DNA from: Candidatus Nanoarchaeia archaeon
Lineage (GTDB): Archaea > Nanobdellota > Nanobdellia > SCGC-AAA011-G17 > JAFCDX01
Direction: 5' to 3'
DNA length: 64,000 nt
Assembly (NCBI GenBank): GCA_028716945.1
Contig: JAQUOT010000001.1
Span: forward strand, 187,927-251,926
The notes beneath the pieces are model-generated. The model was not told the origin of the DNA, did not search any database, and was given only the letters and a program-made list of their open reading frames with translations. The translations under genes were made by a program, and so were the position numbers. Positions 7,927-60,961 of this stretch are shown here, piece by piece (position 1 is the first letter of the stretch; each line of letters starts with the position of its first letter).

Positions 7927-9162
7927 TTACCATTTCCTCTTAGCCCCAAAAGCCTCTAAAACAAAGGCATTCATCCATTGCAGACTCCTTAACATAGGAT
8001 ATAACAATAAATATATAAGGGTAATGAAATGGAATTTCCACCTCTGATTAAAGTATTTATGGGCATAGATATAGATATAAAAACCAAATATAAAACTAGC
8101 AATTACAGGAAACCATATTCTTATATCTAAGCTTAAAATAAAATCTTTTACAGATGGCCATTCTATTATAAAATCAAATATTCCAAATCCCAACGTAATT
8201 ATCTTTGTTAAGGTTGTATAAACATATCTTAAAAATTGATAAGCAAATAATAAAAATGAAAATAAAACCATTAACATTGTTGTAACATTCAAAGGTAATT
8301 GGAACAACCCAATTAAACCATAATTTTTGTTAAAGAACATTTTTTTATATTTCCAGTTGTTTGTGATAAAACCTCTGAACCATCTTACTCTTTGTTTCCA
8401 GAAAGCCCTTATATTCAAAGGTCCATTTGTATAATTAATACTCCTTGGTTCTATAATTACATTATATTTATTATACCTCAATTTTAATGCAACTTCTAAG
8501 TCTTCTGTTAGATTGTTTTTGTCAAAACCCCCTAATTTTTTAATTAAATCTGTTCTGTAAACCGTCATAACTCCATGAGTCATGTGTAATGCTCCGATTC
8601 TAGATATTAATTTTCTAACAAAACTAGATAGAATATATTCTAATCTTTGTATTCTACCTAAATAGTTTATATCATTATTTATTAAAACAGAACTAATTAC
8701 CGCACCAATCTCCGGATCTGAGAAATGATTTACAATTAATTTCAAAGAATTTTTATCTACAAAAGAATCTGAATCAACTCTTGCAAAAAATTCAGTATCA
8801 ATTTGTTGCAAGGCAGCATTCAATGTTCCTGCTGCATTTCCACTATTGATTTTGTTTTGAATTAATTTAATATTTTTATGTTTTTTACAATATTCTTTAA
8901 TAATTAAAGGAGTATTATCTGTAGAAGCATCATCTGCTACAATTATTTTTAATTTATCTTTCGGATAATCCAGATTAAGTATAGAATCTAAGGTTTTTGC
9001 TATATTTTTTTCTTCATTATATGCAGGAACGACTACAGTAACTTTTGGAATTTCTTTTAATGGCTGCGGTTCTTTTGGTTCTCCTAAACCAACTATAATT
9101 AACCAAAAGATAGATACATATAGTGAAATGAAACACAATATCCATATATATATTTCAAACAT
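7927..9162 (-). CDS. Family 2 glycosyltransferase with integral membrane C-terminal half (processive synthase-like)
   Basis: 411 aa. It carries VTVVVPAYNEEKNIAKTLDSIL..YP, IIVADDASTDNT and QRVRWFRG (a QxxRW-like motif). Several C-terminal TM segments follow. Confidence 0.85.
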   Translation of the reverse strand: MFEIYIWILCFISLYVSIFWLIIVGLGEPKEPQPLKEIPKVTVVVPAYNEEKNIAKTLDSILNLDYPKDKLKIIVADDASTDNTPLIIKEYCKKHKNIKLIQNKINSGNAAGTLNAALQQIDTEFFARVDSDSFVDKNSLKLIVNHFSDPEIGAVISSVLINNDINYLGRIQRLEYILSSFVRKLISRIGALHMTHGVMTVYRTDLIKKLGGFDKNNLTEDLEVALKLRYNKYNVIIEPRSINYTNGPLNIRAFWKQRVRWFRGFITNNWKYKKMFFNKNYGLIGLFQLPLNVTTMLMVLFSFLLFAYQFLRYVYTTLTKIITLGFGIFDFIIEWPSVKDFILSLDIRIWFPVIASFIFGFYIYIYAHKYFNQRWKFHFITLIYLLLYPMLRSLQWMNAFVLEAFGAKRKW

Positions 9163-9178
9163 TTTAACCCCCTGAATA

Positions 9179-10642
9179 TTAACAAACTAATTTGTAAACC
9201 TGTAAATTTTTTTCAAAGCAATCTGTATCAAACTTCTTACTATCTATATTGTATAATTTTTTAACCTTTTCTGATAAAAAGATATATTTTATGTTATTTT
9301 CTTTCATTTTTGAAATGGTTCTCTCTCCTGAATTTGAACTAAATAAAATTCCTGCGTCTAACATCCTCTTCTCCGGATTTGGTGCTAATAAGAAATTTGT
9401 ATCAAAAAAGTTTTTCTTGCCTGAAAAATAATTAATCAAATTTCCTTCATAAATAGTACCAATGACTATATCATTTTTATCCTGAGAATCTTGTTTTATC
9501 CATTGCAAAGATTCAATTTCTATATTACTAGGAACCTGGCTTGCAGTGTTTTTTGCCATGGTAAATGAAGGGTAAACTGAAAATAATACTAATAAAATTA
9601 CAAATATACTTAAAAGTAATTTATTCCAATGTGCTACTTTTGTTAATTTTAGATATTTAAAAAAATTATAGATGGTTAATGCAGACAAAATTGAAGCAGA
9701 TAATCCTATAAAAACTAAAGCTGTATAAAAATTAATCATTTTCAACGAGAGCAAAATTAGATTGGTTATTAATAATGAAGATATTAAAAATATTGCTTTC
9801 TTTTTGTATTTTGTAATTCCTTTATAAATAGTTATAAATCCAAATATTAAAGGAATGTAACCTAAATGATACATTATAGAAAGGATATTTATTTGTTTAA
9901 AAGAAGCCACAGATAATGAGCTAGGCAAATTGTTCCATAATACACTTATTCCATAACTTAACAAAGAATCTTTATAAATTAATAAATTTGTTAGTAAAGT
10001 AATAATTAAAAAAGATAATATCAAGATTATTTCATTTTTATTTAATTCAGAATCTTCTGCATAAGAAAAAACTAAATAAATTATAAAAAATAAAATTACT
10101 AGAATAGAGATTGGACTTAATAAAGCCAAAATGAGTGAGGATAATAAAAATAGAGAAAAGTATGTTTTTTTATCAAGGTTTAAAATACAATAAATCATAA
10201 AAAATATTAAAGGAAATGCAATGCAATACACAGAAACCTTGTTTAATGTTTCTCTAATTGCTAAAGGGACAAAACCCACCATGAATGCAGAAATTAATGC
10301 AGATCTTTCATCGTTTATTATTTGTTTTGATATTAAATAAGCAAGTATTACTAATAAAGACATAAAAAATTGTAAGATTATTTTATCTGCCCAAGGAATA
10401 AATGAAATCGCAGCTAAAAAATATGAAAATAGGGGTGAATTATTTACAGGCCTTCCTGAATAACTCAGTTCATCATAAATCATGGGTTTTAAATTTTCCT
10501 TGACATAATCTGCTTGTCTTAAATTGGCATAAGAAGTATCATCTGAAAATGAATTTTCTGGGGTGGATAAAGAAAAGTTCAATCTAAATAAAAATACAAC
10601 CAAAAACAAAACCAACAAAATTATTTTATATATTTTATTCAT
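9179..10642 (-). CDS. Polytopic membrane protein, possibly a GT-C-type glycosyltransferase
   Basis: 487 aa with more than 10 predicted hydrophobic segments. An acidic first loop (FSDDTSYANL) and a soluble C-terminal domain are present. It lies adjacent to the GT2 gene. The function is inferred from architecture only. Confidence 0.5.
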   Translation of the reverse strand: MNKIYKIILLVLFLVVFLFRLNFSLSTPENSFSDDTSYANLRQADYVKENLKPMIYDELSYSGRPVNNSPLFSYFLAAISFIPWADKIILQFFMSLLVILAYLISKQIINDERSALISAFMVGFVPLAIRETLNKVSVYCIAFPLIFFMIYCILNLDKKTYFSLFLLSSLILALLSPISILVILFFIIYLVFSYAEDSELNKNEIILILSFLIITLLTNLLIYKDSLLSYGISVLWNNLPSSLSVASFKQINILSIMYHLGYIPLIFGFITIYKGITKYKKKAIFLISSLLITNLILLSLKMINFYTALVFIGLSASILSALTIYNFFKYLKLTKVAHWNKLLLSIFVILLVLFSVYPSFTMAKNTASQVPSNIEIESLQWIKQDSQDKNDIVIGTIYEGNLINYFSGKKNFFDTNFLLAPNPEKRMLDAGILFSSNSGERTISKMKENNIKYIFLSEKVKKLYNIDSKKFDTDCFEKNLQVYKLVC

Positions 10643-11114
10643 TTTTTAATTTTAAATTATTATCTACTACATCAAAATAATCAAAGAACTTTTGAGTTAA
10701 TTTTAACATTCTTGTTCTTCCAGATTTTTCCGAAGTAACAAAACTACTTTCTTTTAAGAAATGAATATGATCATATGCTTTATTTCCTCTTATTTTTATG
10801 ATTTCTGCTTGTAAAACAGGTTGTTTGTATGCGATTACTGCCAAAGTTTCTTGTGTAGGAAAATCCAACTCAGAATCCGATAACAATTTTTCACTCAAAT
10901 ATAAATATTCTTTCTTTAAACAGAGCTTCCATTTATCTGCTTCATTTACTAATTCTAATGGTCCTTGTCTTTTAGAGTATTCATCTTTTAATTCAAGTAA
11001 TTTTTGAGCGATTAATCCTTGAGAACCTATGCTTGTTAAACTAGCTATTTCTGGTACAGATACAGGTCTTCCTAATATGAATAATACCGACTCTATTTTA
11101 TTCCTATTTTCCAT
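10635..11114 (-). CDS. scpB: Segregation and condensation protein B (ScpB)
   Basis: 159 aa. It has IESVLFILGRPVSVPEIA and ETLAVIAYKQPVLQAEIIKIRG.KAYDHI, which form the tandem winged-helix pattern of ScpB. Confidence 0.75.
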   Translation of the reverse strand: MENRNKIESVLFILGRPVSVPEIASLTSIGSQGLIAQKLLELKDEYSKRQGPLELVNEADKWKLCLKKEYLYLSEKLLSDSELDFPTQETLAVIAYKQPVLQAEIIKIRGNKAYDHIHFLKESSFVTSEKSGRTRMLKLTQKFFDYFDVVDNNLKLKNE

Positions 11115-11216: not shown

Positions 11217-11570
11217 TTAATTCAAATATATTGGTTTCTTATCTTTGTCTGGTGTACCTCTAGGATTTTTTGGAGGTTCTTGAGAATGACCAACATAAAA
11301 TCTTAATAGAACAGTTAATGCCAACAGTTCTTCCTGTTGTACATTCATATAATCACGAGGTTTATCTTTCACAGCCTCGAATAGATCATAAAAACAATAC
11401 CACATCTCATCCCATAAAACTCTTCCTCGTTCAACTGCTTCTTTCCAAGTTTGAGGATGTTCATTATACAACAATTCTCCTTTATGTCTAAGGTGGTTAT
11501 TCCAATCAAGTTCATAAACCTTTTTACTTAATGCTTCAATTCTACGTTCTAATTCAATTACTTGATTCAT
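11217..11570 (-). CDS. Hypothetical protein (Trp/His-rich, compositionally atypical)
   Basis: 117-aa ORF flanked by about 100-150 nt of non-coding sequence on both sides. I recognise no family. Confidence 0.55.
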   Translation of the reverse strand: MNQVIELERRIEALSKKVYELDWNNHLRHKGELLYNEHPQTWKEAVERGRVLWDEMWYCFYDLFEAVKDKPRDYMNVQQEELLALTVLLRFYVGHSQEPPKNPRGTPDKDKKPIYLN

Positions 11571-11721
11571 AACTTATTAATATTTACGATTGTTTATAAA
11601 TCTTTCGATTTGTTATTACTATAAAGTTATTAATATAAATTAACATTCGTCTAAAATTAATTCTTTAATAAAAAGGTTACTTTGAGGTTATTATTATTTA
11701 TAAAAACATTAACTTTAAATA

Positions 11722-12090
11722 TTACTCTAACCCTTGGTATTCTAAAGATTGTTTTTCGCTTAAACAAGCACCATCAAAACATCCTTCTTCACAATAAACT
11801 ATCATTGTTTGGAAATTAAAAGAATTTGTCGAATCACAATTATACTCTTTTAATCTATTTGCATCTACGCAATAATCTGTTCTTTCACGCAGATTACAAT
11901 CGTCTCCTCTTACTGAAACAGTTCCTTTTAGATTAATACTTCCTTGGTCTGTATCTTTACAAGATTTATCACAACCAACAAGAACATTACTAGTTGTTGT
12001 AAATTGAGTTACTCCCAAAGTTAATAAAAGAATTACTGCTATAAGTAATAAAGCAGATAATAAAACTTCTTTATTAAATTTCTTTGCCAT
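11722..12090 (-). CDS. Small membrane-anchored cysteine-rich protein, paralog 1 of 5
   Basis: 122 aa. N-terminal TM, then CKDTDQG...KGTVSV...TDYC...LKEYNC...YCEEGCFDGAC. Confidence 0.75.
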   Translation of the reverse strand: MAKKFNKEVLLSALLLIAVILLLTLGVTQFTTTSNVLVGCDKSCKDTDQGSINLKGTVSVRGDDCNLRERTDYCVDANRLKEYNCDSTNSFNFQTMIVYCEEGCFDGACLSEKQSLEYQGLE

Positions 12091-12091
12091 T

Positions 12092-12487
12092 TTATTTTAT
12101 GCAAGCTCCATCTTTACAACCTTTTTCACAAATAACCAATTTATCATTATATTCACTATAAGTAAAATCTTGAGAGTTAGAACTTTCTGGATCTGATCCA
12201 CAGAAATATTCTTTTACGGCAGAATATTTATTTTCTTCATTTGGTCCAACCTGTACATAAGCACAATAATCGGTTTTTGCTTCAAAAGCATAGCGTCCTT
12301 TGCTTACCGCAGTTACTGTACCTTTAACAAATTGATTATATCCTCCATCTGTATCATTACAACTTCTTTTTAGAAGAACGTTTCCAGTTGTAAAATTTAT
12401 AAAGCTTAATATAAAAAATGCGCAAACAGATACTATTAAAATTAGAATAATATAATCCCTAACATCCACTTCTTTTTTCTTTTTCAT
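12092..12487 (-). CDS. Small membrane-anchored cysteine-rich protein, paralog 2 of 5
   Basis: 131 aa. TM, then TTGNV, then CNDTDGG...KGTVTA...TDYC...VKEYFC...ICEKGCKDGAC. Confidence 0.75.
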   Translation of the reverse strand: MKKKKEVDVRDYIILILIVSVCAFFILSFINFTTGNVLLKRSCNDTDGGYNQFVKGTVTAVSKGRYAFEAKTDYCAYVQVGPNEENKYSAVKEYFCGSDPESSNSQDFTYSEYNDKLVICEKGCKDGACIK

Positions 12488-12561
12488 ATCTTATTTATAC
12501 ATTTAATTATTTATAAAGATTTCTATATAAATTAAAAAAATAAAAAATAAAAAATTTTAAT

Positions 12562-12891
12562 TTATTGTAAGCATGCTCCGTTTTGACAGCCATTTGCACA
12601 ATAAACTGAAGGATCTCTGTTATATCCGCTTGCATCTGCCACATTACAATTAAATTCTACTAATGTCTTTCCTGTTGAATCATCCATAGAACAATAATCT
12701 GTTTGTGGGTCAAAAGCAGTTCCTCCAGAATCAGTACCTGTTACAGTACCTTGCATGTAAATACTTCCACCATCAGTATCTTGACAAGAAACTTTTATAA
12801 CTTTTCCTGTTGTTAAAATACCTGATGCTAAAAGCACTGCTAAAACGAGCAAAACTACTAATCCGATTATAGTTTTGTCTTTTGTATCCAT
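12562..12891 (-). CDS. Small membrane-anchored cysteine-rich protein, paralog 3 of 5
   Basis: 109 aa. TM, then TTGKV, then CQDTDGG...QGTVTG...TDYC...LVEFNC...YCANGCQNGAC. Confidence 0.75.
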   Translation of the reverse strand: MDTKDKTIIGLVVLLVLAVLLASGILTTGKVIKVSCQDTDGGSIYMQGTVTGTDSGGTAFDPQTDYCSMDDSTGKTLVEFNCNVADASGYNRDPSVYCANGCQNGACLQ

Positions 12892-12931
12892 AATTTAATT
12901 AAGAACAATCTATATTTAAATGTTTCTAAAC

Positions 12932-13267
12932 TTATTCTATGCAAGCGCCGTCTTTACAACCCTTTTCACAAACAACTAATTCAGATTCCCAATTATTTGG
13001 AGTAAGCAAATTACAGTTATATTCTTTTAATTCCTTTGTATTTTCTAAAGAACAATAGTCTGTTTCTTCAAATTGGGCATTGTAATCAGTATATCCTGTT
13101 ACTATTCCTTTTACATAAATACTTCCACTATCTGTATCTTCACAATGTGCTTTAAAACTAAATCCAGTAACTTTCTCAAAAAATCCTGTTGCAAAAAATA
13201 ATAAATATAAAGACAGTATTACAAAAATTACCAATAATTTTCTTGAAAAACCTTCAAATAATTTCAT
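12932..13267 (-). CDS. Small membrane-anchored cysteine-rich protein, paralog 4 of 5
   Basis: Track ORF 12932..13309. I moved the start to MKLFEGF (13267) so that it no longer overlaps paralog 5. The domain reads CEDTDSG...KGIVTG...TDYC...LKEYNC...VCEKGCKDGAC. Confidence 0.7.
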   Translation of the reverse strand: MKLFEGFSRKLLVIFVILSLYLLFFATGFFEKVTGFSFKAHCEDTDSGSIYVKGIVTGYTDYNAQFEETDYCSLENTKELKEYNCNLLTPNNWESELVVCEKGCKDGACIE

Positions 13268-13281
13268 TTTGAAATAAAAAA

Positions 13282-13650
13282 TTATCTCTCGCAAGCCCCG
13301 TTCTTGCAACCATATTCACAAACAATAAATTTATAGGAATATGCGTTTTTGTCTGTTTCTTCTGGGTCAATATCATGCAAACAATAATATTCTTTTAAAA
13401 CATCGGTTTTTTCAGGATTATCTTCATAATATACACAATAGTCTACTTCATTAATCTGTATTTGAGAAGGATATTGGTGTCCTGAAAGCTTTCCTCTAGC
13501 AAATTCATTATCTCCACTATCAGTATCATAACAATAGCCTGCACGCATACTTTGCCCAGTAGTATAATTTATAGTATTATTTAGCACAATTAAAACTGCT
13601 AAAACAACTAAGATTGCAGAACCTATCACCACTTTATCTCTATTATCCAT
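13282..13650 (-). CDS. Small membrane-anchored cysteine-rich protein, paralog 5 of 5
   Basis: 122 aa. TM, then TTGQS, then CYDTDSG...RGKLSG...VDYC...LKEYYC...VCEYGCKNGAC. Confidence 0.75.
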   Translation of the reverse strand: MDNRDKVVIGSAILVVLAVLIVLNNTINYTTGQSMRAGYCYDTDSGDNEFARGKLSGHQYPSQIQINEVDYCVYYEDNPEKTDVLKEYYCLHDIDPEETDKNAYSYKFIVCEYGCKNGACER

Positions 13651-13690: not shown

Positions 13691-14782
13691 TTATTTAATA
13701 GGATATCTAAGTATAGCTGCTACTCCACCGATATCTTTTAGCTGTACCCCTTCTCTTGATTCTGTAGAAATCATTCTTACTTCGGTTTTGTATTTTTCTG
13801 CTTCTTCTTCAAGTTCTTCTATTTGTTTATCTGGAAGATTTTCAGATAATAATAAAACATCTACTGCACCCAAAGCCAAAGCTTTTTTGGTTTCAATTAA
13901 TCCATAAGTTGTTTTTTCTTCTTCCCTTGCTAATTTTTCGAAAAACTTTTGCATAATCTCTTTTTCTACAGTTATTTCTTCTTCTGCAAGAACTTCGTGA
14001 CTTCTTTCAACTAAATCATGTAATCCAGATTCTCCAGTATAAGATAAATCTTTTACAGCAATTATTTTTTTTCTTATTTCAGTTAATAAATAATTTCCAT
14101 CTACAAATTCTTGTTTTGTAGTACCAGGTCCACCAATTAATACTCCTTTTAAATCTGGTTTATTAAAAAATTCTTTGTTTGCAAATTCTGCAACCCTTTT
14201 ATAAAATTCGTGAGCTGCTTCTTCTCTTAAACGAGCATATCTTTGTTGTGAGAATCCACCTGTTTTTACTTTTCCTGGAACACCCGAAGTCATTGTAACT
14301 AGATTCTTAATATTTGTTCCTCTCAATAATCCAACATTGGCCTCTCTTTTATCAAGAACAATTAAACCAAATGTTTCTTTGATATTAATCATGTCTATCA
14401 AAGGTTCTAGTAAAAAAGTTTGATCACATCTATATACTCGCATGTTAATCGGTTCAGGAGGTTCTATAGACCAAACTTTAATATCAACTTTATTTTCTTT
14501 TTCAGAAGCATTTCCTGCAAAAACAGCCAATCCGTTCTCTGGAGTTCTTTTGTATAATCTTAAATGTTGTATCATCCTTTCAATAGAATCTATGACATGC
14601 ATTCTTGTTGTTTTATCTTTAATATTAGAAGCAGTTCCTTGTTCTTGAAATAAGTGATTCATAATTTTAACTAATTCATAACCTGCTGGAACATAAACAG
14701 AAACTAACTCAGTATGTCTTCCTCTAATTCCTTCTAATTCTTTTAATGTTTTCTTTAAAATATATCTTTCTTTTATATTCAT
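13691..14782 (-). CDS. prf1: Peptide chain release factor aRF1 homolog with non-canonical motifs (NIKD instead of NIKS, GGF instead of GGQ)
   Basis: 363 aa. The N-domain has GTASNIKDKTTR and YRCDQTF (YxCxxxF). The M-domain reads GVPGKVKTGGFSQQRYARLREEAAHEFY, which aligns without gaps to the usual ..GGQSxxRFxRLREE.. pattern. I re-read the codons ggt gga ttc from the DNA. Confidence 0.8.
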   Translation of the reverse strand: MNIKERYILKKTLKELEGIRGRHTELVSVYVPAGYELVKIMNHLFQEQGTASNIKDKTTRMHVIDSIERMIQHLRLYKRTPENGLAVFAGNASEKENKVDIKVWSIEPPEPINMRVYRCDQTFLLEPLIDMINIKETFGLIVLDKREANVGLLRGTNIKNLVTMTSGVPGKVKTGGFSQQRYARLREEAAHEFYKRVAEFANKEFFNKPDLKGVLIGGPGTTKQEFVDGNYLLTEIRKKIIAVKDLSYTGESGLHDLVERSHEVLAEEEITVEKEIMQKFFEKLAREEEKTTYGLIETKKALALGAVDVLLLSENLPDKQIEELEEEAEKYKTEVRMISTESREGVQLKDIGGVAAILRYPIK

Positions 14783-14783
14783 T

Positions 14784-17144
14784 TTAAAATTCTATTTTTA
14801 AGTTATCTCCAAATTTAATCTCTTTTGCATTTGTAACAGCTTTCAAATCATCAAAAAATTCTTTTATAATCTTTTCATTCTTTTTTTCTATAGTAATAAT
14901 AACAGGTTCTTTCATTGATTTGTTATTTTTAGTTTTGAATTGTCTTACTTCATTAATTATATCTAAAACTAAATCTCCATCTTTTTCTAAATCTGTGTCT
15001 TTTAACTTTTTATCATACTCTGGCCAAGAAGTTAAATGTATGCTTTCTTTTTTCTTTAAAGTTTCTTGATAAATTTCTTCTGTTATAAAAGGAGTAATTG
15101 GGCCTAACATTTTTAATAAACAGATTAAAGTCTTATGTAAAGTATATTGTGCAGACATTCTAGAATCTTTTCCTCTTTTATCTGGATTATATAATCTATC
15201 TTTAACAATTTCTAAATAATTATCACAAAATATATGCCAAAAGAAATTTTCTATTTTTTGTTTTGGTTTTGAATAAGAATAATTTTCAAAATCTTCTGTG
15301 CATTCTTTTACTAAATTATTTAGTTTTATCAATAACCATTCATCAAATTTCTCTAGTTTTTTATTTTCTTTTTCTTTGTAATCTTGTAAGTGCATTGCAA
15401 CGAATTTGGAAGCATTCCATAATTTTGTTATTAATTTTTGTCCTGTAACTAAATCTTTTTCCTGATAATCTAAATCCTCTCCCAATTTTGAACCTGCTGC
15501 CCAAAACCTCATAGCATCTGTACCAAATTTATCTAAAACTTGTTTAGGATCAATAACATTTCCTAAAGATTTAGACATTTTTTCTCCACCAATTGTAACA
15601 TAACCAGAAATTGTAATATCTTTCCAAGGAATCTCTTTTTCGTGTAAATAAGATTTAGTTATGGTATAAAATGCCCAAGTTCTTATAATATCATGTGCTT
15701 GTGGTCTAAGAGAAAATGGAATTTTTATTTTTCCATTTACTAGAGAAGAAGCAATTTGTGGTGTTAAAGAAGAAGTTGCCCAAGTATCCAAAACTTTTTC
15801 TTCTCCGTTTGCATCTTGTTTACATTTAGGACATTTCTTTTTTGTTTGTAAAGGATCTATAGGTAATTCTTTTTCTTCAGGCAAGATTATTTCTCCACAT
15901 TTTTTACATTCCCAAACCGGAATAGGAATACCAAAGTGCCTGTCTCTTGAAATAGACCAATCCCATTCTAACCCATTTACCCAATTTTCATATCTTTTAA
16001 ACATGAATTCAGGATACCATCTAACTTTCTTCCCTTGTTCAATTAATTTTTTCTTTTTATCTAATATTTTAATAAACCATTGTTTTGTTGGAAGAAGTTC
16101 TATTTCAGTTCCACATCTGTCGTGTACGTTAACTATATGACTTATTGGTTTTTGTTCAGTAATTAAATCTACATTTTTTAAATCTTCAAGAATTTGCTTT
16201 CTTGCTTCTTTTATTTTAAGCCCTTTATATTTTCCAAAGTTTAAAGTTCCATCTTGATTAAAAACTATTTTTGGAGTAAGTTTATGTTTTGTTATTGCTT
16301 GTGCATCATATTTATCTCCATAAGAACATATCATTAATACTCCTGTTCCTTTTCCTATATCTGCAGATTCGTCAGCAATTATAGGAACTTCGAAATTAAA
16401 TAAAGGAACTTTTGCTTTTTTACCAACTAAATTTTTATAACGTTCATCAGAAGGATTTACAAATACAGCAACACATGCGGGCAATAATTCTGGCCTTGTT
16501 GTTGCTATTAACAAATCTTTTCCATTTGCTTTAAATTTCAAAGTAGAAAATAAACTTTCTAAATTTTTGTCTTCTAATTCTGCTTGTGCAACAGTAGTTC
16601 TACAATCTGTACACCATAAAGTTGGAAAGTCTTTAACATAAATATCTCCTTGTTTAAACAAATCAATAAAAGATTTTTGAGAAACTTTTTGAGTTGGTTT
16701 ATCTATAGTAGAATAATATATATTAAAATCTGCACTCATTGCTATATCTTTCCAATCTTGTATAAACCCAGGAGTTTGTTCTTTTAAAGTTTTTAAACAT
16801 AATTCAATAAATGCTGCCCTAGATATAGATTTACTTTTAATATTATTTGTTTTTTCTACAAATCTTTCTGTAGGTAACCCATTATCATCTGTTCCGAAAG
16901 GATAAAATACATTTTTTCCAGACATTCTTTGGTATCTTGCTATAAAATCTTGTTGTGAATATGAAAAAGCATGACCAATGTGCATTTTACCAGAAATATA
17001 AGGAGGAGGCGTATCTATAGAATAAACTGGTTTCTTTGAATTTATATCAAACTTGTAAATCTTATTCTTTTCCCAGTATTCCTTCCACTTCTTCTCTGAT
17101 GCTTTAAAATCATAATTCTGACTTGTCATATTAATTATCTCCAA
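14784..17144 (-). CDS. valS: Valyl-tRNA synthetase
   Basis: 786 aa class I synthetase. It has DTPPPYISGKMHIGHAFSYSQQDFIARYQRMSG (archaeal ValRS-like HIGH region) and KMSKSLGN. The start may instead be the second Met at 17129. Confidence 0.8.
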   Translation of the reverse strand: MEIINMTSQNYDFKASEKKWKEYWEKNKIYKFDINSKKPVYSIDTPPPYISGKMHIGHAFSYSQQDFIARYQRMSGKNVFYPFGTDDNGLPTERFVEKTNNIKSKSISRAAFIELCLKTLKEQTPGFIQDWKDIAMSADFNIYYSTIDKPTQKVSQKSFIDLFKQGDIYVKDFPTLWCTDCRTTVAQAELEDKNLESLFSTLKFKANGKDLLIATTRPELLPACVAVFVNPSDERYKNLVGKKAKVPLFNFEVPIIADESADIGKGTGVLMICSYGDKYDAQAITKHKLTPKIVFNQDGTLNFGKYKGLKIKEARKQILEDLKNVDLITEQKPISHIVNVHDRCGTEIELLPTKQWFIKILDKKKKLIEQGKKVRWYPEFMFKRYENWVNGLEWDWSISRDRHFGIPIPVWECKKCGEIILPEEKELPIDPLQTKKKCPKCKQDANGEEKVLDTWATSSLTPQIASSLVNGKIKIPFSLRPQAHDIIRTWAFYTITKSYLHEKEIPWKDITISGYVTIGGEKMSKSLGNVIDPKQVLDKFGTDAMRFWAAGSKLGEDLDYQEKDLVTGQKLITKLWNASKFVAMHLQDYKEKENKKLEKFDEWLLIKLNNLVKECTEDFENYSYSKPKQKIENFFWHIFCDNYLEIVKDRLYNPDKRGKDSRMSAQYTLHKTLICLLKMLGPITPFITEEIYQETLKKKESIHLTSWPEYDKKLKDTDLEKDGDLVLDIINEVRQFKTKNNKSMKEPVIITIEKKNEKIIKEFFDDLKAVTNAKEIKFGDNLKIEF

Positions 17145-17188: not shown

Positions 17189-17338
17189 GGAGCGGTAGCT
17201 CAGAAAGGTTTTGAAGTTTAAGACCTTGAGCAACCTGGGAGAGCATAGAAATATCTCAAACCACGCTGAAGCCGTGGATGAAAGGTTATACGTCTAGTAT
17301 ACCTTGCCAAATCGGGGGTTCAAATCCCCCTCGCTCCA
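17189..17338 (+). tRNA. tRNA-Phe (anticodon GAA) with three introns (17204..17233, 17245..17259, 17281..17311)
   Basis: The hand fold gives acceptor GGAGCGG/TCGCTCC plus A73. The D-arm is GCTC-AGCCTGGGA-GAGC after removal of a 30-nt insert. The anticodon arm is CCACG-CTGAAGC-CGTGG, the variable loop ATGTC, and the T-arm GGGGG-TTCAAAT-CCCCC. The spliced product is 74 nt. Each intron is bounded by a BHB-like motif with 3-nt bulges. An AT-rich TATA-like tttaaatatat lies about 30 nt upstream. Confidence 0.85.
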
Positions 17339-18026
17339 TTTTCTTTATATTTTTAATATTAGAACTTCTTATTAATTTAATAAAAGAGGAGGCATTATTA
17401 TAACCGCTTATTTGTATTTTATATTTTTCATACCTTTTATTAGTTCTTTTATCTATATAATTTTCATGTCCTACATAATGATCTATCTTTTGAATTTTAA
17501 TCCAATCAGATATTTTGTATATTAAATTTTTATCTTTTAGACCAAGATTAATAACTGGATAAAATTTATATTTTCCGTGATTCTTTTTTAAACACAAAGA
17601 ACCATCTGTATCAAAAATTCCTTTAATGAATGCTTTAGCATAAATTTTATTATCCCATATCCATCGAGGAACCTTATTTCTATAATTTATTTTTTTATAA
17701 CCTATAATATTAAGAAAAGATAATATCCCTTTAGATCTCTTTGTTAAGATTAAAGTATTAATCTTTTTCTTTTGATATAAATTCATCTTTACATTGAATA
17801 AAAACAAAACTTTATCTTTAATATAGTTTGAATAATTCCTCTCATCTTTGAGATTACTAAAAATAGAAAAAATATAATCATTGCTTCCTAAATTATAATA
17901 AACATGGCCATCTCCAGACAAAATACCTAAAAATTCTGACAAGTCTCTAGAAGAGGATTTAGGAAAAATAATTTTATTCTTAATATCTTGGTGACTTAGT
18001 TGAATATCTGATAAATCAAATTTCAT
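17286..18026 (-). CDS. LAGLIDADG family endonuclease (two-motif, free-standing), paralog A
   Basis: Track ORF 17286..18068. I chose the start MKFDLSD at 18026, matching paralog B. The two motifs are LGILSGDGHV and IKGIFDTDGSL. The last 53 nt are antisense to the tRNA-Phe 3' part. Confidence 0.8.
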   Translation of the reverse strand: MKFDLSDIQLSHQDIKNKIIFPKSSSRDLSEFLGILSGDGHVYYNLGSNDYIFSIFSNLKDERNYSNYIKDKVLFLFNVKMNLYQKKKINTLILTKRSKGILSFLNIIGYKKINYRNKVPRWIWDNKIYAKAFIKGIFDTDGSLCLKKNHGKYKFYPVINLGLKDKNLIYKISDWIKIQKIDHYVGHENYIDKRTNKRYEKYKIQISGYNNASSFIKLIRSSNIKNIKKMERGGFEPPIWQGILDV

Positions 18027-18048
18027 GATTAATAAAAAGCGAATTTGA

Positions 18049-18105
18049 TTTATAAATCTGGCGCGCACCCATCTGCAAGTTGCAATTTGTTAGAATATAT
18101 ATTTT
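18049..18105. repeat. Conserved 57-nt block upstream of LAGLIDADG paralog A (TATA-like box plus GC-rich and palindromic core)
   Basis: The sequence tttataaatctggcgcgcacccatctgcaagttgcaatttgttagaatatatatttt is nearly identical to 63404..63459, apart from a 2-nt indel and a local shift. It contains the palindrome tgcaaGttgca. Confidence 0.85.
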
Positions 18106-18710: not shown

Positions 18711-20099
18711 ATGATAAAACTATTCAATACCTTAACAAGAAAAAAAGAAGAGTTTAAACCAATTAAAACTAAAGAAGTGGGAATTTATTCTTGTGGATTA
18801 ACCGTTTATAATTATGGGCATATAGGTAATTTTAGAGCTTTTGTATTTGCAGACTTATTGCATAGATATTTTGAATACAAAGGATTTAAAGTAAAACATA
18901 TTACAAATATAACTGATGTAGATGATAAAACCATTCGTGATTCACAAAAAGAAAAATTATCTTTAAAACAATTTACTTCTAAATATGAAAAAGCTTTTTT
19001 TGAGGATATTAAAACTTTGAATATTAAAGAATCTTTCAAATATCCTAAAGCTACAGAACACATTAAAGAAATGGTTTCTATAATAAAAAAATTATTAGAT
19101 AAAGGTTATGCTTACAAAACAGATGATGGAATTTATTTTAAAATTTCTAAAGATAAAGAATATGGTAAATTAGCTCATTTAAAATTTGCTGATTTAGAAG
19201 CAGGAGCATCTGAAAGAGTAACAAAAGACGAATATGATAAAGAAAATGTACAAGACTTTTGTTTATGGAAATTTTATGATAAATTAGATGGAGATGTTTT
19301 CTGGGATACAGAAATTGGAAAAGGAAGACCTGGATGGCATATAGAATGTTCTGCAATGTCAATGAAATATCTAGGAGAAACCTTTGATATTCATACTGGT
19401 GGAATTGATTTAATATTTCCTCATCATGAAAATGAAATTGCTCAATCAGAATGTGCAACAGGGAAAAAATTTGTAAATTATTGGTTGCATAATGAATTTA
19501 TTTTAGTTGATGGTAAAAAAATGTCTAAATCTCTGGGTAATTTTTATACTTATAGAGATGTTCTTGCAAAAGGGTATTCTGGAATGGAAATAAGATATTC
19601 CTTATTAAGCACACATTATAGAATCCCATTTAATTTTACTTTTGAGGGGCTTGATTCTGCTAGAAACTCGCTAAAAAGACTTAATGAATTTGTAAATAGA
19701 TTAAATTTTGTAAAATCAGACAAAGATAGCAAAAAAGTTTCTGATTTAATTAAAAACGTTAAAAAAGAATTTGAAGAATCCTTAGATGATGATTTAAATA
19801 TTGCAAATGCTCTTGCTTCAATCTTTGGTTTTATCAGTGAGATAAATAAATTAAAAATAAGTAAAAAAGAAGCAAAAGAAATATTAAAAACATTAAATGA
19901 ATTTGATCAAGTTCTTGGTTTAAACTTAATTTCAAAAAAAGAATCTATTCCAAAAGAAATAAAAGAATTAATGGATAAAAGAGAAAAATATAGAAAAGAA
20001 AAAGACTGGAAAAAGGCCGATGAAATTAGAGATAAATTAAAAGAAAAAGGATTTGTTCTTGAAGATACTAAAGAAGGAATTATTTGGAAAAAAGCTTAA
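18711..20099 (+). CDS. cysS: Cysteinyl-tRNA synthetase
   Basis: 462 aa. It has YSCGLTVYNYGHIGNFR (HIGH region), WHIECS and KMSKSLGNF. Confidence 0.9.
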   Translation: MIKLFNTLTRKKEEFKPIKTKEVGIYSCGLTVYNYGHIGNFRAFVFADLLHRYFEYKGFKVKHITNITDVDDKTIRDSQKEKLSLKQFTSKYEKAFFEDIKTLNIKESFKYPKATEHIKEMVSIIKKLLDKGYAYKTDDGIYFKISKDKEYGKLAHLKFADLEAGASERVTKDEYDKENVQDFCLWKFYDKLDGDVFWDTEIGKGRPGWHIECSAMSMKYLGETFDIHTGGIDLIFPHHENEIAQSECATGKKFVNYWLHNEFILVDGKKMSKSLGNFYTYRDVLAKGYSGMEIRYSLLSTHYRIPFNFTFEGLDSARNSLKRLNEFVNRLNFVKSDKDSKKVSDLIKNVKKEFEESLDDDLNIANALASIFGFISEINKLKISKKEAKEILKTLNEFDQVLGLNLISKKESIPKEIKELMDKREKYRKEKDWKKADEIRDKLKEKGFVLEDTKEGIIWKKA

Positions 20100-21598
20100 A
20101 ATTTATCATCATAAGGCACTAGTTCTATTTTACTTATCTCATCTACATGTTTTTTAGCTTTATCTAGTATTTGTTTAAACATATTTTCATAAGAAACTAT
20201 TTTTCCATCTAATTTTAATTTATAATTATGGAGTTCTGATTGTAGATTAATTTTGTCTCTGTTCAATTCTTGACAAACACCTGTTCTAGGTTTAAATTCT
20301 AAAGGTTTATCAAAAAATTTGTATAAATATTGTACTGCTCCAAAATAATCATCAGGAGATTCTCCAACAGTAATTTCATCCACTCTATTCATAAAATTAT
20401 TAAAATGACTTAATAATTGGTAAAAAGCATCTTGATGTATCCCTGTATATAGTTTTCCTGTAGGAACATCTAATTTTAAGTCCCATTTTTTAGTAAAAGA
20501 TAAAAAAAGTTCTTCAATAGTTTTTGGTGAATCTTGTTTTTTAGTTCCTTCTACTTCTGAAGCAGGTAATCCTTTTATTAATTCATAAAAAGTTTTTACG
20601 CTTTCCAAATTTTGGTAATTTAATAAATTATTTTTTAATTCTGGAATTAAATTTCTTTTTTTAACACCTTTGATATTAAATCTTTCTATTAATTCAGATA
20701 ATTCATTTTTATAATAATCTTCTGTTATATCTTTTTTAATAAATTTTTGTATTAAAGGACTTAATTCCATATCGAGAACTACTTCTAAAGTAGCTTGATC
20801 TTTTATTATATCTTGTAGAGAACGTGAAACAAATCCGTCTATATTTTCTAGAACATAACTAAGTGTCCATATTCTTAACTTTTTTAATTTATGATAATTT
20901 TTTTCTAAATTTTGTTTTAGATTATTCTGTAATCTTTGCTTTACTGAAAATTGTATTCCTACACCAAAATCTATTTTATCAACAACTTCTTTATAATTAT
21001 TTATTATAGCTTCTAATGTTTCAAAGGTACTCCCTAAAATAGTTTCTCTTTCTCCATATTCATGATTAGGATGATAATTATCAAAAGATTTTATATAAAC
21101 TTCTAAGGATTTTAAAAATTGAACATTATCAAATACAAATAAGTCTACAGGATCAATTATAGATTGTTCATCATTAATCATAAAAGTATGAATCTGTTTA
21201 ACAAATTTTAATGATTTAAGTTTGTTTAACCCAGTGGAAACTTCTTGAACCGGACGATGAAGAATGTCTGCTATTCCTTCTAAAGTTTCTCCTTTCTTAA
21301 TTAAAGACATTAATGAAATATAAAAAGGATCTTTTAGAATTTCTTCGTTAGATTGATTAATTTGTTTCAAATCTACTTCCCATTGGTCTGCTTGTTTAGA
21401 TATAGAACGTTCAGTATAAGATTGATAAAGGTTATTTAACCAAGGTAAATTATCTATTAAATTTGAAGTAGAATTTCCTTTAAGTGAAGCTATTTGTTCT
21501 GAATCTGTTTGAGTTGAAATTGGTTTTCCTAGAGCTAAAGCTAATTTTTCCAATTCTGCTTGCATTTCTTGATCTAACTTTTCTACCATTTTTATCAC
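20096..21598 (-). CDS. Hypothetical 500-aa protein with a possible winged-helix segment
   Basis: Long uninterrupted ORF. The stretch ISLMSLIKKGETLEGIADILHRPVQEVSTGLNKLKSLKFVKQ looks wHTH-like. I recognise no family. Confidence 0.65.
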   Translation of the reverse strand: MIKMVEKLDQEMQAELEKLALALGKPISTQTDSEQIASLKGNSTSNLIDNLPWLNNLYQSYTERSISKQADQWEVDLKQINQSNEEILKDPFYISLMSLIKKGETLEGIADILHRPVQEVSTGLNKLKSLKFVKQIHTFMINDEQSIIDPVDLFVFDNVQFLKSLEVYIKSFDNYHPNHEYGERETILGSTFETLEAIINNYKEVVDKIDFGVGIQFSVKQRLQNNLKQNLEKNYHKLKKLRIWTLSYVLENIDGFVSRSLQDIIKDQATLEVVLDMELSPLIQKFIKKDITEDYYKNELSELIERFNIKGVKKRNLIPELKNNLLNYQNLESVKTFYELIKGLPASEVEGTKKQDSPKTIEELFLSFTKKWDLKLDVPTGKLYTGIHQDAFYQLLSHFNNFMNRVDEITVGESPDDYFGAVQYLYKFFDKPLEFKPRTGVCQELNRDKINLQSELHNYKLKLDGKIVSYENMFKQILDKAKKHVDEISKIELVPYDDKF

Positions 21599-21679
21599 TA
21601 TATAATAGATACGCTATTTAAAAACTTTTCGATATTAAAAAATAAAAAAGAAATTTATTTATTGTTGCCCTGCTTGGGT

Positions 21680-22528
21680 TTATTGCTGATTTTGTTCTTG
21701 TATTTCTGTGTTTTCACCAGAATTTTCTTCTTGGTTTTCAACTTCGGCAGTTACTTGTTCTCCAGCAGCAGTTTGATTTCTCAATCTTTCTTGTTCTCTT
21801 TCTTGGATTGGTTCTTCAGTAGCAGCTTCGTCTCTTAATCTTTTTTGTTCTTTAGTTTCTTTCATTACTTTATTGGCTACTCTTTCTTGTTTAACTTCGC
21901 TCATATTGTTGTATCTTTCTTCTGCTGCCCTAAGTCTAGTCAAAGTCTTGTCAATACCTGGAGATGTAACATTTTTAGCTTGTAATTTTTGTTGAATTAT
22001 ATCCAGAACAGTAATATGCTTTTGCAAATTATATTCTAATCTTTCAGATTTAGTTACATTTTCTTTCGCAAATTGTTCTTTTAATTCAGAAAGTTCTTGG
22101 ACAAGTTGAGCATGAAATCCTTCAGCTTTTGCTAAAGATTTCAAATCTCCTTTCTTAGCCATTTCTTTCATTTCTGACAATCTTCTTTGAGCAAACTGTA
22201 ATTTCTTTTCTGCTTGCTTTTCTTTACTTATTGTCATCCACAAGCTTATTTTTTCTGCAAATCTTTTCCAACCATAAGCAACTGGCTGATCTGGTGTTGC
22301 TCCTACATTTTCTGTTTCGTTTGTAGTAGCATCATCTATGGATTCAGTTAATTCAGTTGTCTCACTAGGAGTTAGATTTTCAGAATCTGTTGAAATTTCA
22401 GTAATTTCTGGTGTAACAGTTTCTTCGTTTGTTCCAACAACATTTTCAGTAGTATCTTCTGCAAGAACTACGTTTAATGTTACTAAAACTAACAAAAGTG
22501 TTACAAAAATACTAAATATTTTTTTCAT
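21680..22528 (-). CDS. Secreted acidic coiled-coil protein, hypothetical
   Basis: 282 aa. It has the signal peptide MKKIFSIFVTLLLVLVTLNVVLA. Glu/Thr-rich low-complexity ends flank a helical core. Confidence 0.65.
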   Translation of the reverse strand: MKKIFSIFVTLLLVLVTLNVVLAEDTTENVVGTNEETVTPEITEISTDSENLTPSETTELTESIDDATTNETENVGATPDQPVAYGWKRFAEKISLWMTISKEKQAEKKLQFAQRRLSEMKEMAKKGDLKSLAKAEGFHAQLVQELSELKEQFAKENVTKSERLEYNLQKHITVLDIIQQKLQAKNVTSPGIDKTLTRLRAAEERYNNMSEVKQERVANKVMKETKEQKRLRDEAATEEPIQEREQERLRNQTAAGEQVTAEVENQEENSGENTEIQEQNQQ

Positions 22529-22701
22529 TTATTGCCTCCATCAAAATTTTTATTAATATTAGATTAATAAGATTATATATAAAGAAACTTTATTTGTAAA
22601 AAATTTAAAGCTTTACGAAGCTTCTTAACACTATTTGGAACTCATTTTAAGCTTCTTTTTATTAAAGAAAATTATATAAAGCTTTAATAGTTGTAGCTAC
22701 A

Positions 22702-23343
22702 ATGAAAAATATTGGTATAATTCTTACTTTATTAGGAATATTTTTAATTAGTTTAATCTCAGTTAATGCAATTACAGCAACAATACAAGGAAGTGTATAT
22801 GATCTAACTTTAGATAAAGTAAATAATGTAATTCTTGAAATTAATACTATTCCTGAACAAACTTATGTTGCAAAAATAGGAGATTATTCTTTTGAAAGCA
22901 TTCCTGTTGGAGATTATGTTATAAAAGCTTACACCCAAGATAGATCCTTAATAACTACTGAAAATATTACTATAAACCAAGAAGGAACTTACACTATAGA
23001 TTTATTTTTAATACCTGAATTCGAAGAAAAAGAAACCAAATCTACAAATTATCTTTATTATATAATCCCTTTTATATTAATCTTAATTTTAATAGCAATC
23101 ATTTACAAAAGATTAAAAATACCTAAAAAAGTAGAGCTAAAAATTGAAGGGGTAAAAGATGATCTTGAAAAAGTAATTGAAATAATCAAAAAAGAAGGTG
23201 GAAGAACTACTCAAAAGGATATTAGGGAAAAGATAGGCTTGTCTGAAGCCAAGGTAAGCTTAATGATAGTAGAACTAGAAGATAAAGGTATTATAAAAAA
23301 GATTAAAAAAGGAAGAGGCAATATCATCATTTTAAACAAATAA
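22702..23343 (+). CDS. Bitopic membrane protein with an extracellular carboxypeptidase-regulatory-like beta domain and a cytoplasmic winged-helix DNA-binding domain
   Basis: 213 aa. The order is signal peptide, a GSVYD...IPVGDYVIKAY beta-sandwich-like segment, the TM segment YLYYIIPFILILILIAIIY, then GGRTTQKDIREKIGLSEAKVSLMIVELEDKGIIKK. Confidence 0.6.
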   Translation: MKNIGIILTLLGIFLISLISVNAITATIQGSVYDLTLDKVNNVILEINTIPEQTYVAKIGDYSFESIPVGDYVIKAYTQDRSLITTENITINQEGTYTIDLFLIPEFEEKETKSTNYLYYIIPFILILILIAIIYKRLKIPKKVELKIEGVKDDLEKVIEIIKKEGGRTTQKDIREKIGLSEAKVSLMIVELEDKGIIKKIKKGRGNIIILNK

Positions 23344-23380
23344 AAACCTTTTTAAAGGGGTTATATCTTTCTAAATTAAT

Positions 23381-23794
23381 ATGTCAATCTACAATAAAGA
23401 TACAAATAAGTTGATAGAGAAAGCAGCAGAAGAGCTAAAAAATATTCCAGAAATTAAAGCTCCAATCTGGGCTCCATTTGTTAAAACCTGTGCTGGAAAG
23501 CAAAGGCCTCCTGCAAAGAAAGATTGGTGGTATCATAGAACAGCTTCATTATTAAGAAAATTATATATTGCTCAAGGTCCAATTGGTGTTTCTAAATTAA
23601 GAAAAAAATATGGGCATAGAAAACACAGAGGTTTTAGACCAGAAAAAGCATATACTGGTTCGGGAAATGTTATAAGAAAAATATTACAACAATTAGATAA
23701 AGCAGGATTCTCAAAACAAGTTGAAAAAGGAGTTCATAAAGGAAGAATAATTACTCCAAAAGGAAAATCTTTCTTGGATAAATTAGCAAAGTAA
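23381..23794 (+). CDS. rps19e: 30S ribosomal protein S19e
   Basis: 137 aa. APFVKTCAGKQRPPAKKDWWYHRTASLLRKLY is typical of S19e. Confidence 0.9.
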   Translation: MSIYNKDTNKLIEKAAEELKNIPEIKAPIWAPFVKTCAGKQRPPAKKDWWYHRTASLLRKLYIAQGPIGVSKLRKKYGHRKHRGFRPEKAYTGSGNVIRKILQQLDKAGFSKQVEKGVHKGRIITPKGKSFLDKLAK

Positions 23795-23795
23795 A

Positions 23796-23963
23796 ATGGT
23801 AAAAAGATTAATACAAAAATTAAGATTAGGAAAAAGATTAGCTCAAACAAAGTGGGCTCCATTCTGGACTATTCCAAAGAAATATGGAAAAGGTCGTAGA
23901 GTACATCCTTCAAGACATACTGAAATTAAAAGATCCTGGAGAAGAACCAAATTAAAAGTATAA
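23796..23963 (+). CDS. rpl39e: 50S ribosomal protein L39e
   Basis: Hand-translated 55-aa ORF, below the ORF-track cutoff: MVKRLIQKLRLGKRLAQTKWAPFWTIPKKYGKGRRVHPSRHTEIKRSWRRTKLKV. It is tightly packed between S19e and L31e. Confidence 0.85.
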   Translation: MVKRLIQKLRLGKRLAQTKWAPFWTIPKKYGKGRRVHPSRHTEIKRSWRRTKLKV

Positions 23964-23964
23964 A

Positions 23965-24489
23965 ATGGCAGACTTAGAAAGAAATTATGTTATACCTCTT
24001 AGAAAAGGTTTTTTAAAAGTACCAATTTACAAAAGAACTAAAAGAGCAATTTCTGAAGTAAGAAAATTCATTATAAGACATATGAAAGTTGAAGAAGTTA
24101 AAATCTGTGCTAATTTAAATCATTTCTTATGGGCAAAAGGTTGTACAAATCCTCCTACCAGAATTAAAATTAAAACAAGAAAAGAAGGAACTTATGCTTT
24201 AGTAGAATTACAAGATTATGATTTCCCTAAGAAAAAAGAAGAAGTTAAAGAAACTAAAATTGAAAAAGCTCTAAATGATAAAGACGTAGAAGGTAAAAAA
24301 GAAGAGAAATTATTAAAGAATGAACCTGAAAAGAAAGAAAATCTTGCTCCTGGTCCTGAGAAAAAAGAAGAATTAAAAACAAAACAGATAGAAGAAAGAT
24401 TAAAAAAAGAAAAAATTGTTAATAAATCACAAAAAAGAATGATTAAACACGAAAAACAGAACAAATCATTTATTAAAACAAGTCATTAA
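23965..24489 (+). CDS. rpl31e: 50S ribosomal protein L31e with a Lys/Glu-rich C-terminal extension
   Basis: 174 aa. The N-terminal 85 aa (YVIPLRKGFLKVPIYKRTKRAISEVRKFI...) are L31e-like. The rest is KE-rich low complexity. Confidence 0.85.
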   Translation: MADLERNYVIPLRKGFLKVPIYKRTKRAISEVRKFIIRHMKVEEVKICANLNHFLWAKGCTNPPTRIKIKTRKEGTYALVELQDYDFPKKKEEVKETKIEKALNDKDVEGKKEEKLLKNEPEKKENLAPGPEKKEELKTKQIEERLKKEKIVNKSQKRMIKHEKQNKSFIKTSH

Positions 24490-24520
24490 TTTTTATATTC
24501 ATAACTTATCTTTCACAAAT

Positions 24521-25513: not shown

Positions 25514-25808
25514 AAACATGTTAAATAACATTTTATTTATGAGCAGAGTAAAGATTACTATAGAAGGTTCTGTACAAGGAGTTTTCTTCAGATATTTTAT
25601 GAAAAACCATGCAACTGCTTTAGGTTTAACAGGATATGTTAGAAATTTAAATAATAAAGTTGAAGCTGTTTTAGAAGGAAATACTGATAAAATAAAACAT
25701 TTAATTGAATTATGTAAAAAGGGACCAATTAGTGCTAAAGTAACTAAAATGGATATTAAAGACGAAATGTATAGAGGAGAATTCAGAAGTTTTAGAATTA
25801 TATATTAA
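25506..25808 (+). CDS. acyP: Acylphosphatase
   Basis: 100 aa. VKITIEGSVQGVFFRYFMKNHATALGLTGYVRNL..KVEAVLEG matches the acylphosphatase signature. The true start may be the internal Met (MSRVKI). Confidence 0.8.
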   Translation: MNKNMLNNILFMSRVKITIEGSVQGVFFRYFMKNHATALGLTGYVRNLNNKVEAVLEGNTDKIKHLIELCKKGPISAKVTKMDIKDEMYRGEFRSFRIIY

Positions 25809-25844
25809 AAAACTATTTAAACTAAATTAATTTGCTAATTCTAT

Positions 25845-60681: not shown

Positions 60682-60786
60682 TTTTTCCTCCTTTTATTGA
60701 GTTATATGAGAGAAATGACTCCCAACCACCTAAGAATCTAAAGGACTTTAGGTTTATAAAGATTTTTATAAGGTTTTAAAAGTATA

Positions 60787-60882: not shown

Positions 60883-60961
60883 ATGAGATATATTGTTAAA
60901 AGATAATTTATAAGGTTTTTGAATTGATAAAGTTTAAATAATATTAAATTTTAACTATCCT

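Follow-up and report, generated by a model that had tools for sequence, protein, structure and literature searches.

A natural GGF variant of the archaeal release factor aRF1 at the ordinary aRF1 locus of a Nanoarchaeia genome

Introduction

Release of the finished protein from the ribosome is assigned to class I release factors carrying a Gly-Gly-Gln (GGQ) loop, and few universally conserved residues of the translation apparatus are cited as often as the glutamine of this loop. Here we describe a gene for archaeal release factor 1 (aRF1) in which the loop reads Gly-Gly-Phe (GGF). It lies in a stretch of 64,000 nucleotides, hereafter the window, taken from a Candidatus Nanoarchaeia archaeon (assembly GCA_028716945.1, contig JAQUOT010000001.1, positions 187,927 to 251,926 of the forward strand). 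Judging from sequence comparison, the gene encodes the organism's ordinary aRF1 in its usual chromosomal place, and the protein is most likely still a stop-codon-dependent peptide release factor. The replacement of Gln by Phe appears to be part of a selected change of the motif, in which GGQ-S-x-x-R-F turns into GG(F/W/M)-S-Q-x-R-Y. Full-text literature searches on GGQ together with DPANN lineages, or with GGW or GGF, found no description of this pattern, and the occurrence of GGF, GGW and GGM forms across several DPANN lineages is apparently undescribed. In the following, we present the identity of the protein and the evidence that the substitution is genuine, describe its distribution and the changes coupled to it, weigh the alternative explanations, and compare the protein with known members of the eRF1 superfamily.

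Identity of the GGF protein

The open reading frame (ORF) of the GGF protein contains GTASNIKDKTTR, YRCDQTF, and PENGLAVFAG. The gene and its motifs are located in the window as follows.

13691..14782, minus strand: aRF1 gene, an ORF of 363 amino acids (aa) with the domains eRF1_1, eRF1_2, and eRF1_3, without an intein and without the mini-domain of the C domain.
14615..14626, minus strand: NIKD (N53-D56), the lineage form of the stop-codon recognition motif NIKS, from the ORF translation.
14414..14434, minus strand: YRCDQTF (Y117-F123), the intact stop-codon recognition motif YxCxxxF, from the ORF translation.
14252..14260, minus strand: GGT GGA TTC, encoding G175 G176 F177 at the canonical GGQ position according to the homolog alignment (TTC is 14252-14254).
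14237..14251, minus strand: S178 Q179 Q180 R181 Y182, the residues after GGF, among which the Gln at +2 and the Tyr at +5 change in step as the GGQ glutamine is lost.

All three eRF1 domains are recognized by Pfam (PF03463, E 6e-14; PF03464, E 2.2e-40; PF03465, E 1.2e-23), and the protein passes the NCBIfam equivalog model for aRF1, TIGR03676, with 430.7 bits at a cutoff of 234.7. Two of the classical hallmarks of aRF1 and eRF1 are present, the TASNIKS element as TASNIKD and the YxCxxxF element as YRCDQTF. In the third, the GGQ loop, the two glycines are found and the third residue is Phe. The plus strand reads gaatccacc at 14252..14260, the reverse complement of which is ggt gga ttc, and in gap-free HMMER alignments GGFSQQRYARLREEA of the GGF protein pairs with GGQSAQRFARLRLEA in the aRF1 of H. 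salinarum (4af1) and with GGQSALRFARLRMEK in human eRF1. The identification of the protein as an aRF1, and of GGF as the occupant of the GGQ position in a gap-free M-domain alignment, had been made in a sequence-only reading of the window and is confirmed by these results. By descent, architecture, and position the protein is an aRF1 ortholog, and since it departs from the classical GGQ catalytic element it is to be classed as a variant, non-canonical member of the family.

The predicted structure agrees with this assignment. An AlphaFold2 model of the protein has a mean predicted local distance difference test (pLDDT) score of 85.4, and its closest structural matches are aRF1 and eRF1 structures, with the aRF1 4af1 at the top (E 1.9e-38), far ahead of Pelota (E about 1e-15). 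In the model a helix begins at F177, where confidence in the loop is low (pLDDT about 61); the model therefore supports the fold and gives nothing firm on the geometry of Phe177 and Gln179.

Two further features, which the sequence-only reading had listed as oddities, turned out to be lineage traits. One is NIKD, which occurs in 109 of the 120 closest homologs, a set labeled Woesearchaeota, Nanoarchaeia, or Nanoarchaeota. The other is the length of 363 aa, since intein-free members of the same set measure about 350-371 aa and longer ones exceed this solely by an intein. The 416-aa haloarchaeal aRF1 has an additional insertion in the C domain; the GGF protein lacks it and is short for this reason, like the 373-aa A. 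pernix aRF1 (3agk), with which it forms one uninterrupted alignment.

The substitution is genuine and the gene is under selection

Position by position, the codons of Phe (TTY) and Gln (CAR) have no base in common, so a single wrong base cannot yield GGF from a GGQ gene; the nearest GGQ relatives use CAA. The identical protein is encoded on four other contigs, including NCBI assembly GCA_028712455.1 and a Logan assembly of SRR22315508. Close relatives retain the phenylalanine while the codons of the motif vary. The motif is GGA GGG TTT in a relative of 95% identity (P0001, locus L003) and GGA GGT TTC in one of 98% identity, a GTDB species representative located on a 766-kb contig (L011). Comparison of the window gene with that of L003 gives a synonymous divergence (dS) of 0.54 and a nonsynonymous divergence (dN) of 0.031. 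The dN/dS ratio is thus 0.057, and the GGF aRF1 is therefore under strong purifying selection, which is not the behavior of the decaying pseudogene that had been considered for this gene.

An error of sequencing, assembly, or consensus, which had also been considered, or a reading of TTC as something other than Phe, has the unusualness of the observation in its favor and nothing else. It would have to account for three base changes in one codon, for the same protein on several contigs, for relatives at 95% and 98% identity that keep Phe by TTT or TTC, and for ten further GGF homologs from other samples. We regard such an explanation as practically negligible. Reassignment of the TTC codon was examined separately and ruled out: in the GGF aRF1, TTT is also the codon of two invariant residues, Phe88 and Phe123, and Phe codons thus keep their normal meaning. 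Reassignment of a stop codon was ruled out as well, because all three stops are used in the window (TAA 59, TGA 13, and TAG 3) and the coding density is normal, approximately 92% under the standard code. From this stop usage, the source organism is in need of normal termination.

Distribution of aRF1 without the GGQ glutamine

GGF is found in 10 of the 120 closest homologs. These belong to about six clades, all Woesearchaeal, whose nearest neighbors carry GGQ; the GGF protein P0054, for example, shares 82% identity with a GGQ protein but only 67% with the closest GGF protein outside its own clade. A wider sample, consisting of 150 cluster representatives taken from a search of 1.84 billion proteins, has Q as the third motif residue in 121 cases, W in 15, M in 5, F in 4, and A in 2. 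When the motif is masked, a neighbor-joining tree separates 15 non-Gln clades and requires at least 17 changes.

Among 120 homologs of the GGW protein P0140, 115 are GGW, while the 120 homologs of the GGM protein P0254 comprise 114 GGM, 3 GGW, 2 GGY, and 1 GGF, and not a single GGQ. Where the source of these homologs is named, it is mostly labeled Aenigmatarchaeota, and some of them are located on contigs of 0.5-0.9 Mb. In the same group, one GGW gene and one GGQ gene each adjoin the same KaiC-like ATPase gene, so the two are positional orthologs. Sub-variants in Aenigmatarchaeota include GGWSANRY/F (n = 29), in which Asn at +3 replaces Gln at +2, GGY (n = 2), and a few GGM forms without an amide at +2 or +3. 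A non-Gln aRF1 is thus the normal state of large DPANN groups, and a reading of these proteins as dead is for this reason unlikely.

In the non-Gln forms residue 177 is almost always F, W, or M. Leucine is the one-step mutational intermediate on the way from Gln to these three residues, and GGL was encountered in none of about 500 sequences. Gene conversion spreading GGF-SQ-RY from clade to clade, for instance co-conversion at intein homing, was considered and has no support, nor is it needed, as nucleotide identity in the motif region is not raised. Between different GGF clades the identity is 0.73 near the motif and 0.66 over the whole gene, against 0.76 and 0.77 for a GGQ relative, and the Gly and Ser codons of the motif differ between GGF clades.

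Separately, 59 of the 373 homologs that were parsed proved to contain an intein, whether the form was Q, F, W, or M; the window gene has none. In many DPANN aRF1 genes the intein is placed precisely at the junction of the third motif residue with the invariant Ser (GGQ|C...HN|S). Two size classes occur, mini-inteins of about 124-152 aa and large inteins of about 300-580 aa. Intein-bearing homologs are P0010, P0012, P0013, P0071, P0080, P0086, and P0093, and P0121, P0144, and P0153 are examples among the representatives.

Conservation of the loop and the coupled changes

Apart from its third residue, the loop is strictly kept. G175, G176, S178, and R181 are invariant across the Q, F, and W forms (alignment A1), and loop length is unchanged between Gln and non-Gln forms. 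In the same alignment Y117 and F123 of the stop-codon recognition motif are invariant, and R118, C119, and D120 are nearly so. This pattern bears on the possibility that the protein is the organism's sole stop-codon reader, that it does not hydrolyze peptidyl-tRNA itself, and that it recruits ABCE1 for ribosome splitting while the peptide is freed by a separate enzyme (Pth2 or a VLRF1-type factor, for instance). Such a division of labor fits the loss of Gln combined with strong conservation of the remaining protein, and recycling through ABCE1 is a route common to aRF1 and Pelota (established knowledge; cf. PMC6514570). However, invariance of both glycines, of Ser at +1 and of Arg at +4, together with the constant loop length, is hard to explain if the loop were idle in the peptidyl transferase center. 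Apart from a rare Ala, the residues that replace the glutamine are always hydrophobic, and they go along with changes at +2 and +5, which looks like re-optimization and not like decay. Furthermore, no candidate for a partner hydrolase was seen beside the gene. We consider a non-hydrolyzing reader improbable, and return to the view that the GGF protein probably releases the peptide itself.

Two positions downstream of the motif change along with residue 177. Gln is present at +2 in all 15 non-Gln clades, and in seven of these the sister groups have Ala, Ser, or His at this position. Pooled counts, which ignore phylogeny, point the same way: Gln at +2 is found in 117 of 147 non-Gln forms and in 72 of 226 GGQ forms. 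The corresponding figures are 146 of 147 and 129 of 226 for an amide (Gln or Asn) at either +2 or +3, and 121 of 147 and 43 of 226 for Tyr at +5. At no other position of the protein do Gln and non-Gln clades differ by a change of consistent direction. Loss of the glutamine is accompanied by the gain of Gln at +2 and Tyr at +5, and the resulting motif is GG(F/W/M)-S-Q-x-R-Y.

The simplest interpretation of the +2 position would be that the catalytic glutamine has moved two residues downstream (GGQ to GGxSQ), with Gln179 as its functional equivalent and Phe177 as a spacer. The presence of +2 Gln in every independent non-Gln clade, including the seven whose sister groups lack it, and the pooled excess of +2 Gln are both as such a relocation would have it. 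The rule is not absolute, however. Gln at +2 is absent from 30 GGW forms (29 GGWSAN and 1 GGWSAS) and from 8 GGM forms (SAR, SAA, SSG, or SAG), and nine of these also lack an amide at +2 or +3; a relocated glutamine is therefore not the whole mechanism. The restriction of residue 177 to F, W, or M in nearly all cases is likewise unlike a spacer, and the helix that starts at F177 in the AlphaFold2 model would turn residues 177 and 179 in different directions, although at the low local confidence given above. A simple relocation of the catalytic residue is in our view unlikely.

The aRF1 locus

The gene order around the GGF gene runs CysRS, LAGLIDADG-like ORF, ValRS, aRF1, small proteins, ScpB, a protein of about 485 aa, and GT2, with the following members.

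18711..20099: cysteinyl-tRNA synthetase (CysRS), from Pfam.
17286..18068, minus strand: ORF of 260 aa with a faint match to LAGLIDADG_3 (Pfam), also kept beside ValRS in L004.
14784..17144, minus strand: valyl-type class I tRNA synthetase (ValRS), from Pfam, directly upstream of aRF1 and also present in the GGQ relative L004 and the GGF relative L007.
11217..13650, minus strand: six tandem genes for small proteins (109-131 aa) without a Pfam match, between aRF1 and ScpB (ORFs).
10635..11114, minus strand: ScpB, from Pfam, the downstream syntenic marker, in a gene order as in L004, L005, L007, and L008.
9179..10642: protein of 487 aa after ScpB, without a match in the Pfam scan.
7927..9162: GT2 glycosyltransferase, from Pfam, after the 487-aa protein.

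The GGQ relative P0002 (L004) has the identical gene order over the whole segment from CysRS to GT2, and the segment of aRF1, ScpB, and the protein of about 485 aa is common to the GGQ relative L005 and to GGF relatives of other clades (L007 and L008). Because the locus is shared with the GGQ relatives L004 and L005, the GGF gene is the positional ortholog of GGQ aRF1 genes, and by its position it is not a spare paralog.

This finding bears on the possibility that the gene is an inactive extra copy, serving in Pelota-like rescue, in Balon-like hibernation, or as a regulator, while translation is terminated by a canonical GGQ aRF1 encoded at another genomic place. A catalytically dead, Pelota-like paralog had been one of three options in the sequence-only reading. 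In addition to its occupation of the locus common to GGQ orthologs, several lines of evidence speak against it. The non-Gln forms are scattered among GGQ orthologs and form no single paralog clade, they are the norm in Aenigmatarchaeota, and no GGQ form occurs among the best 120 homologs of GGM protein P0254. The stop-codon motifs are retained, as are the two glycines, the Ser, and the Arg of the loop. The protein stays below the cutoffs of the pelota model (TIGR00111, 116.7 bits vs. 177.65) and of the Rv2629/Balon model (NF052289, 42.8 bits vs. 320), and structural matches to Balon and Pelota are far weaker than those to aRF1. Finally, a hidden Markov model built from 121 aRF1 sequences and run against all six-frame ORFs of at least 50 aa found no second eRF1-superfamily ORF within the 64-kb window. 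On this evidence an inactive copy is unlikely, and among the three options of the earlier reading (a dead paralog, an unusual manner of translation termination, or a consensus error) it is unusual termination that survives.

The small-protein genes between aRF1 and ScpB vary in number, and relatives L004, L005, and L007 have 0-4 of them at the same place. Both translations inspected (12932..13309 and 13282..13650) are rich in Cys, with an N-terminus that is hydrophobic. NCBI contig JAQTPZ010000002.1 terminates 464 bp downstream of aRF1, inside the array, which suggests that assemblies tend to break there.

Some additional features of the window were recorded. The window has a GC content of 27.5%, and the region 18711..27410 is rich in translation genes, encoding CysRS, S19e, L31e, a Cbf5-like pseudouridine synthase (TruB + PUA), and a class I lysyl-tRNA synthetase. 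A weak tRNA match by Rfam (17189..17338, plus strand, 150 nt, 31.6 bits vs. a gathering threshold of 29) overlaps the start of the ORF at 17286..18068 on the minus strand; it is possibly a tRNA with a long intron, and ARAGORN made no call there. A tRNA-Ile (GAT) at 60786..60883 on the minus strand spans 98 nt, a length that implies an intron, and a tRNA-Glu (CTC) at 55941..56013 is of normal length.

Proposed mechanism and its significance

How could a release factor work with Phe in place of Gln? In published work, the critical catalytic group is the main-chain amide of the GGQ glutamine, and Pro at this position abolishes activity although the loop keeps its shape. The glutamine's side chain plays a packing role and favors water as the nucleophile, and N5-methylation improves the packing (PMC4691834; PMC5799190). 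We infer catalytic activity, the status as sole release factor, and the roles of Phe177 and Gln179 along these lines. Stop codons would still be read by the N domain through NIKD and YxCxxxF. [quoted passage not shown] A nearby amide would usually come from Gln179, or from an amide residue in position +2 or +3, similar to the GGxSQ loop of VLRF1-type factors.

A number of points weigh against this reading. The first is the absence of the classical catalytic glutamine itself, since inactive members of the superfamily, such as Dom34 and most baeRF1 families, are recognized by this absence (PMC6514570). Bacteria do not survive mutation of the GGQ glutamine, and yeast strains with changes in GGQ are unstable (PMC9589212; PMC12440015), and a working GGF factor would therefore need compensation. 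The 30 GGW and 8 GGM forms lacking Gln at +2 show that the proposed compensation is not universal, the trees behind the count of independent clades are neighbor-joining trees only, and the pooled counts disregard phylogeny. In addition, the paralog search was confined to the 64-kb window, so that a GGQ copy may still lie elsewhere in the genome. One unrelated metagenome-assembled genome, MFD02416.bin.1.263 of a non-DPANN uncultured archaeon, has two aRF1 genes on separate contigs (L057:6001-6945 and L069:6001-6944); both of these read GGQSSRRY, and their match to the query ends at residue 316.

With these points taken into account, we still lean towards the view that the GGQ glutamine is dispensable in living cells, and that a sole aRF1 with an aromatic residue or Met instead of this glutamine may terminate all proteins in several Woesearchaeal lineages, as GGF, and in most Aenigmatarchaeota, as GGW or GGM. 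If so, this would be a natural re-design of the active site of peptide release. Natural and selected GGF, GGW, and GGM factors provide a ready-made test of the need for the side-chain amide. Should they work, release in vivo would not depend on the side-chain amide, and methyl-glutamine could be replaced by a hydrophobic side chain. The changes coupled at +2 and +5 single out particular compensating residues that are open to mutation. These factors would also lack the substrate of the conserved glutamine methyltransferase Mtq2; within the window, a motif scan made without a reference Mtq2 sequence found no ORF with an NPPY- or DPPY-type motif. There is also a consequence for annotation. Archaeal Balon candidates have been separated from aeRF1 partly by their missing NIKS and GGQ (PMC13324472), and rules that call eRF1 homologs inactive or Balon-type when NIKS and GGQ are missing could misfile the essential release factor of these DPANN lineages.

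Comparison with known systems

The closest system is classical aRF1/eRF1 (TIGR03676; PDB 4af1, 3agk, and 1dt9). The GGF protein shares with it the three domains, TASNIK- and YxCxxxF, an alignment from end to end, a Gly-Gly loop of the same length followed by S-x-x-R-[FY]-x-R-L-R, and the locus of its GGQ orthologs. It differs in the Phe that replaces a glutamine regarded as universally conserved and methylated, in NIKD instead of NIKS, and in the absence of the C-domain mini-domain, the last of which it has in common with A. pernix aRF1.

The loop itself finds its nearest counterpart in aVLRF-1 and acVLRF-1, because GGFSQ fits their GGxSQ motif (Burroughs & Aravind 2019, PMC6514570), and the acVLRF-1 domain PF18859 matches residues 141-231 of the GGF protein with 50.9 bits. 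However, aVLRF-1 has no C-terminal domain and carries an N-terminal coiled coil, and acVLRF-1 has no stop-codon domain (PMC6514570), whereas the GGF protein has the full set of N, M, and C domains; with the acVLRF1 model NF041024 it scores 51.1 against a cutoff of 125.

With Pelota/Dom34 and Balon (the Rv2629 family) the protein shares the superfamily fold, entry into the ribosomal A site, and the lack of the GGQ glutamine. Non-catalytic members of the eRF1 superfamily are characterized by degenerate loops (PMC6514570), and Pelota/Dom34 and Balon have such loops and neither NIKS nor YxCxxxF, in contrast to the GGF protein, which keeps these motifs and the GG loop. Its sub-cutoff match to the pelota model is confined to the M and C domains (138-362), the N domain being of the eRF1_1 type. 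The Foldseek match to Balon is at E about 1e-19 with 18% identity, and unlike Balon the protein nests among GGQ aRF1 orthologs.

Lastly, the same residue has been replaced in the laboratory in RF1, RF2, and eRF1 (Shaw & Green 2007; Seit-Nebi 2000; Santos 2013, as cited in PMC4691834 and PMC12440015). From in vitro experiments, catalysis has been attributed to the main-chain amide and packing to the side chain. Those substitutions were engineered and were lethal or unstable in vivo. The GGF form, on the other hand, is natural and fixed, is held by purifying selection, and is accompanied by the coupled changes at +2 and +5.

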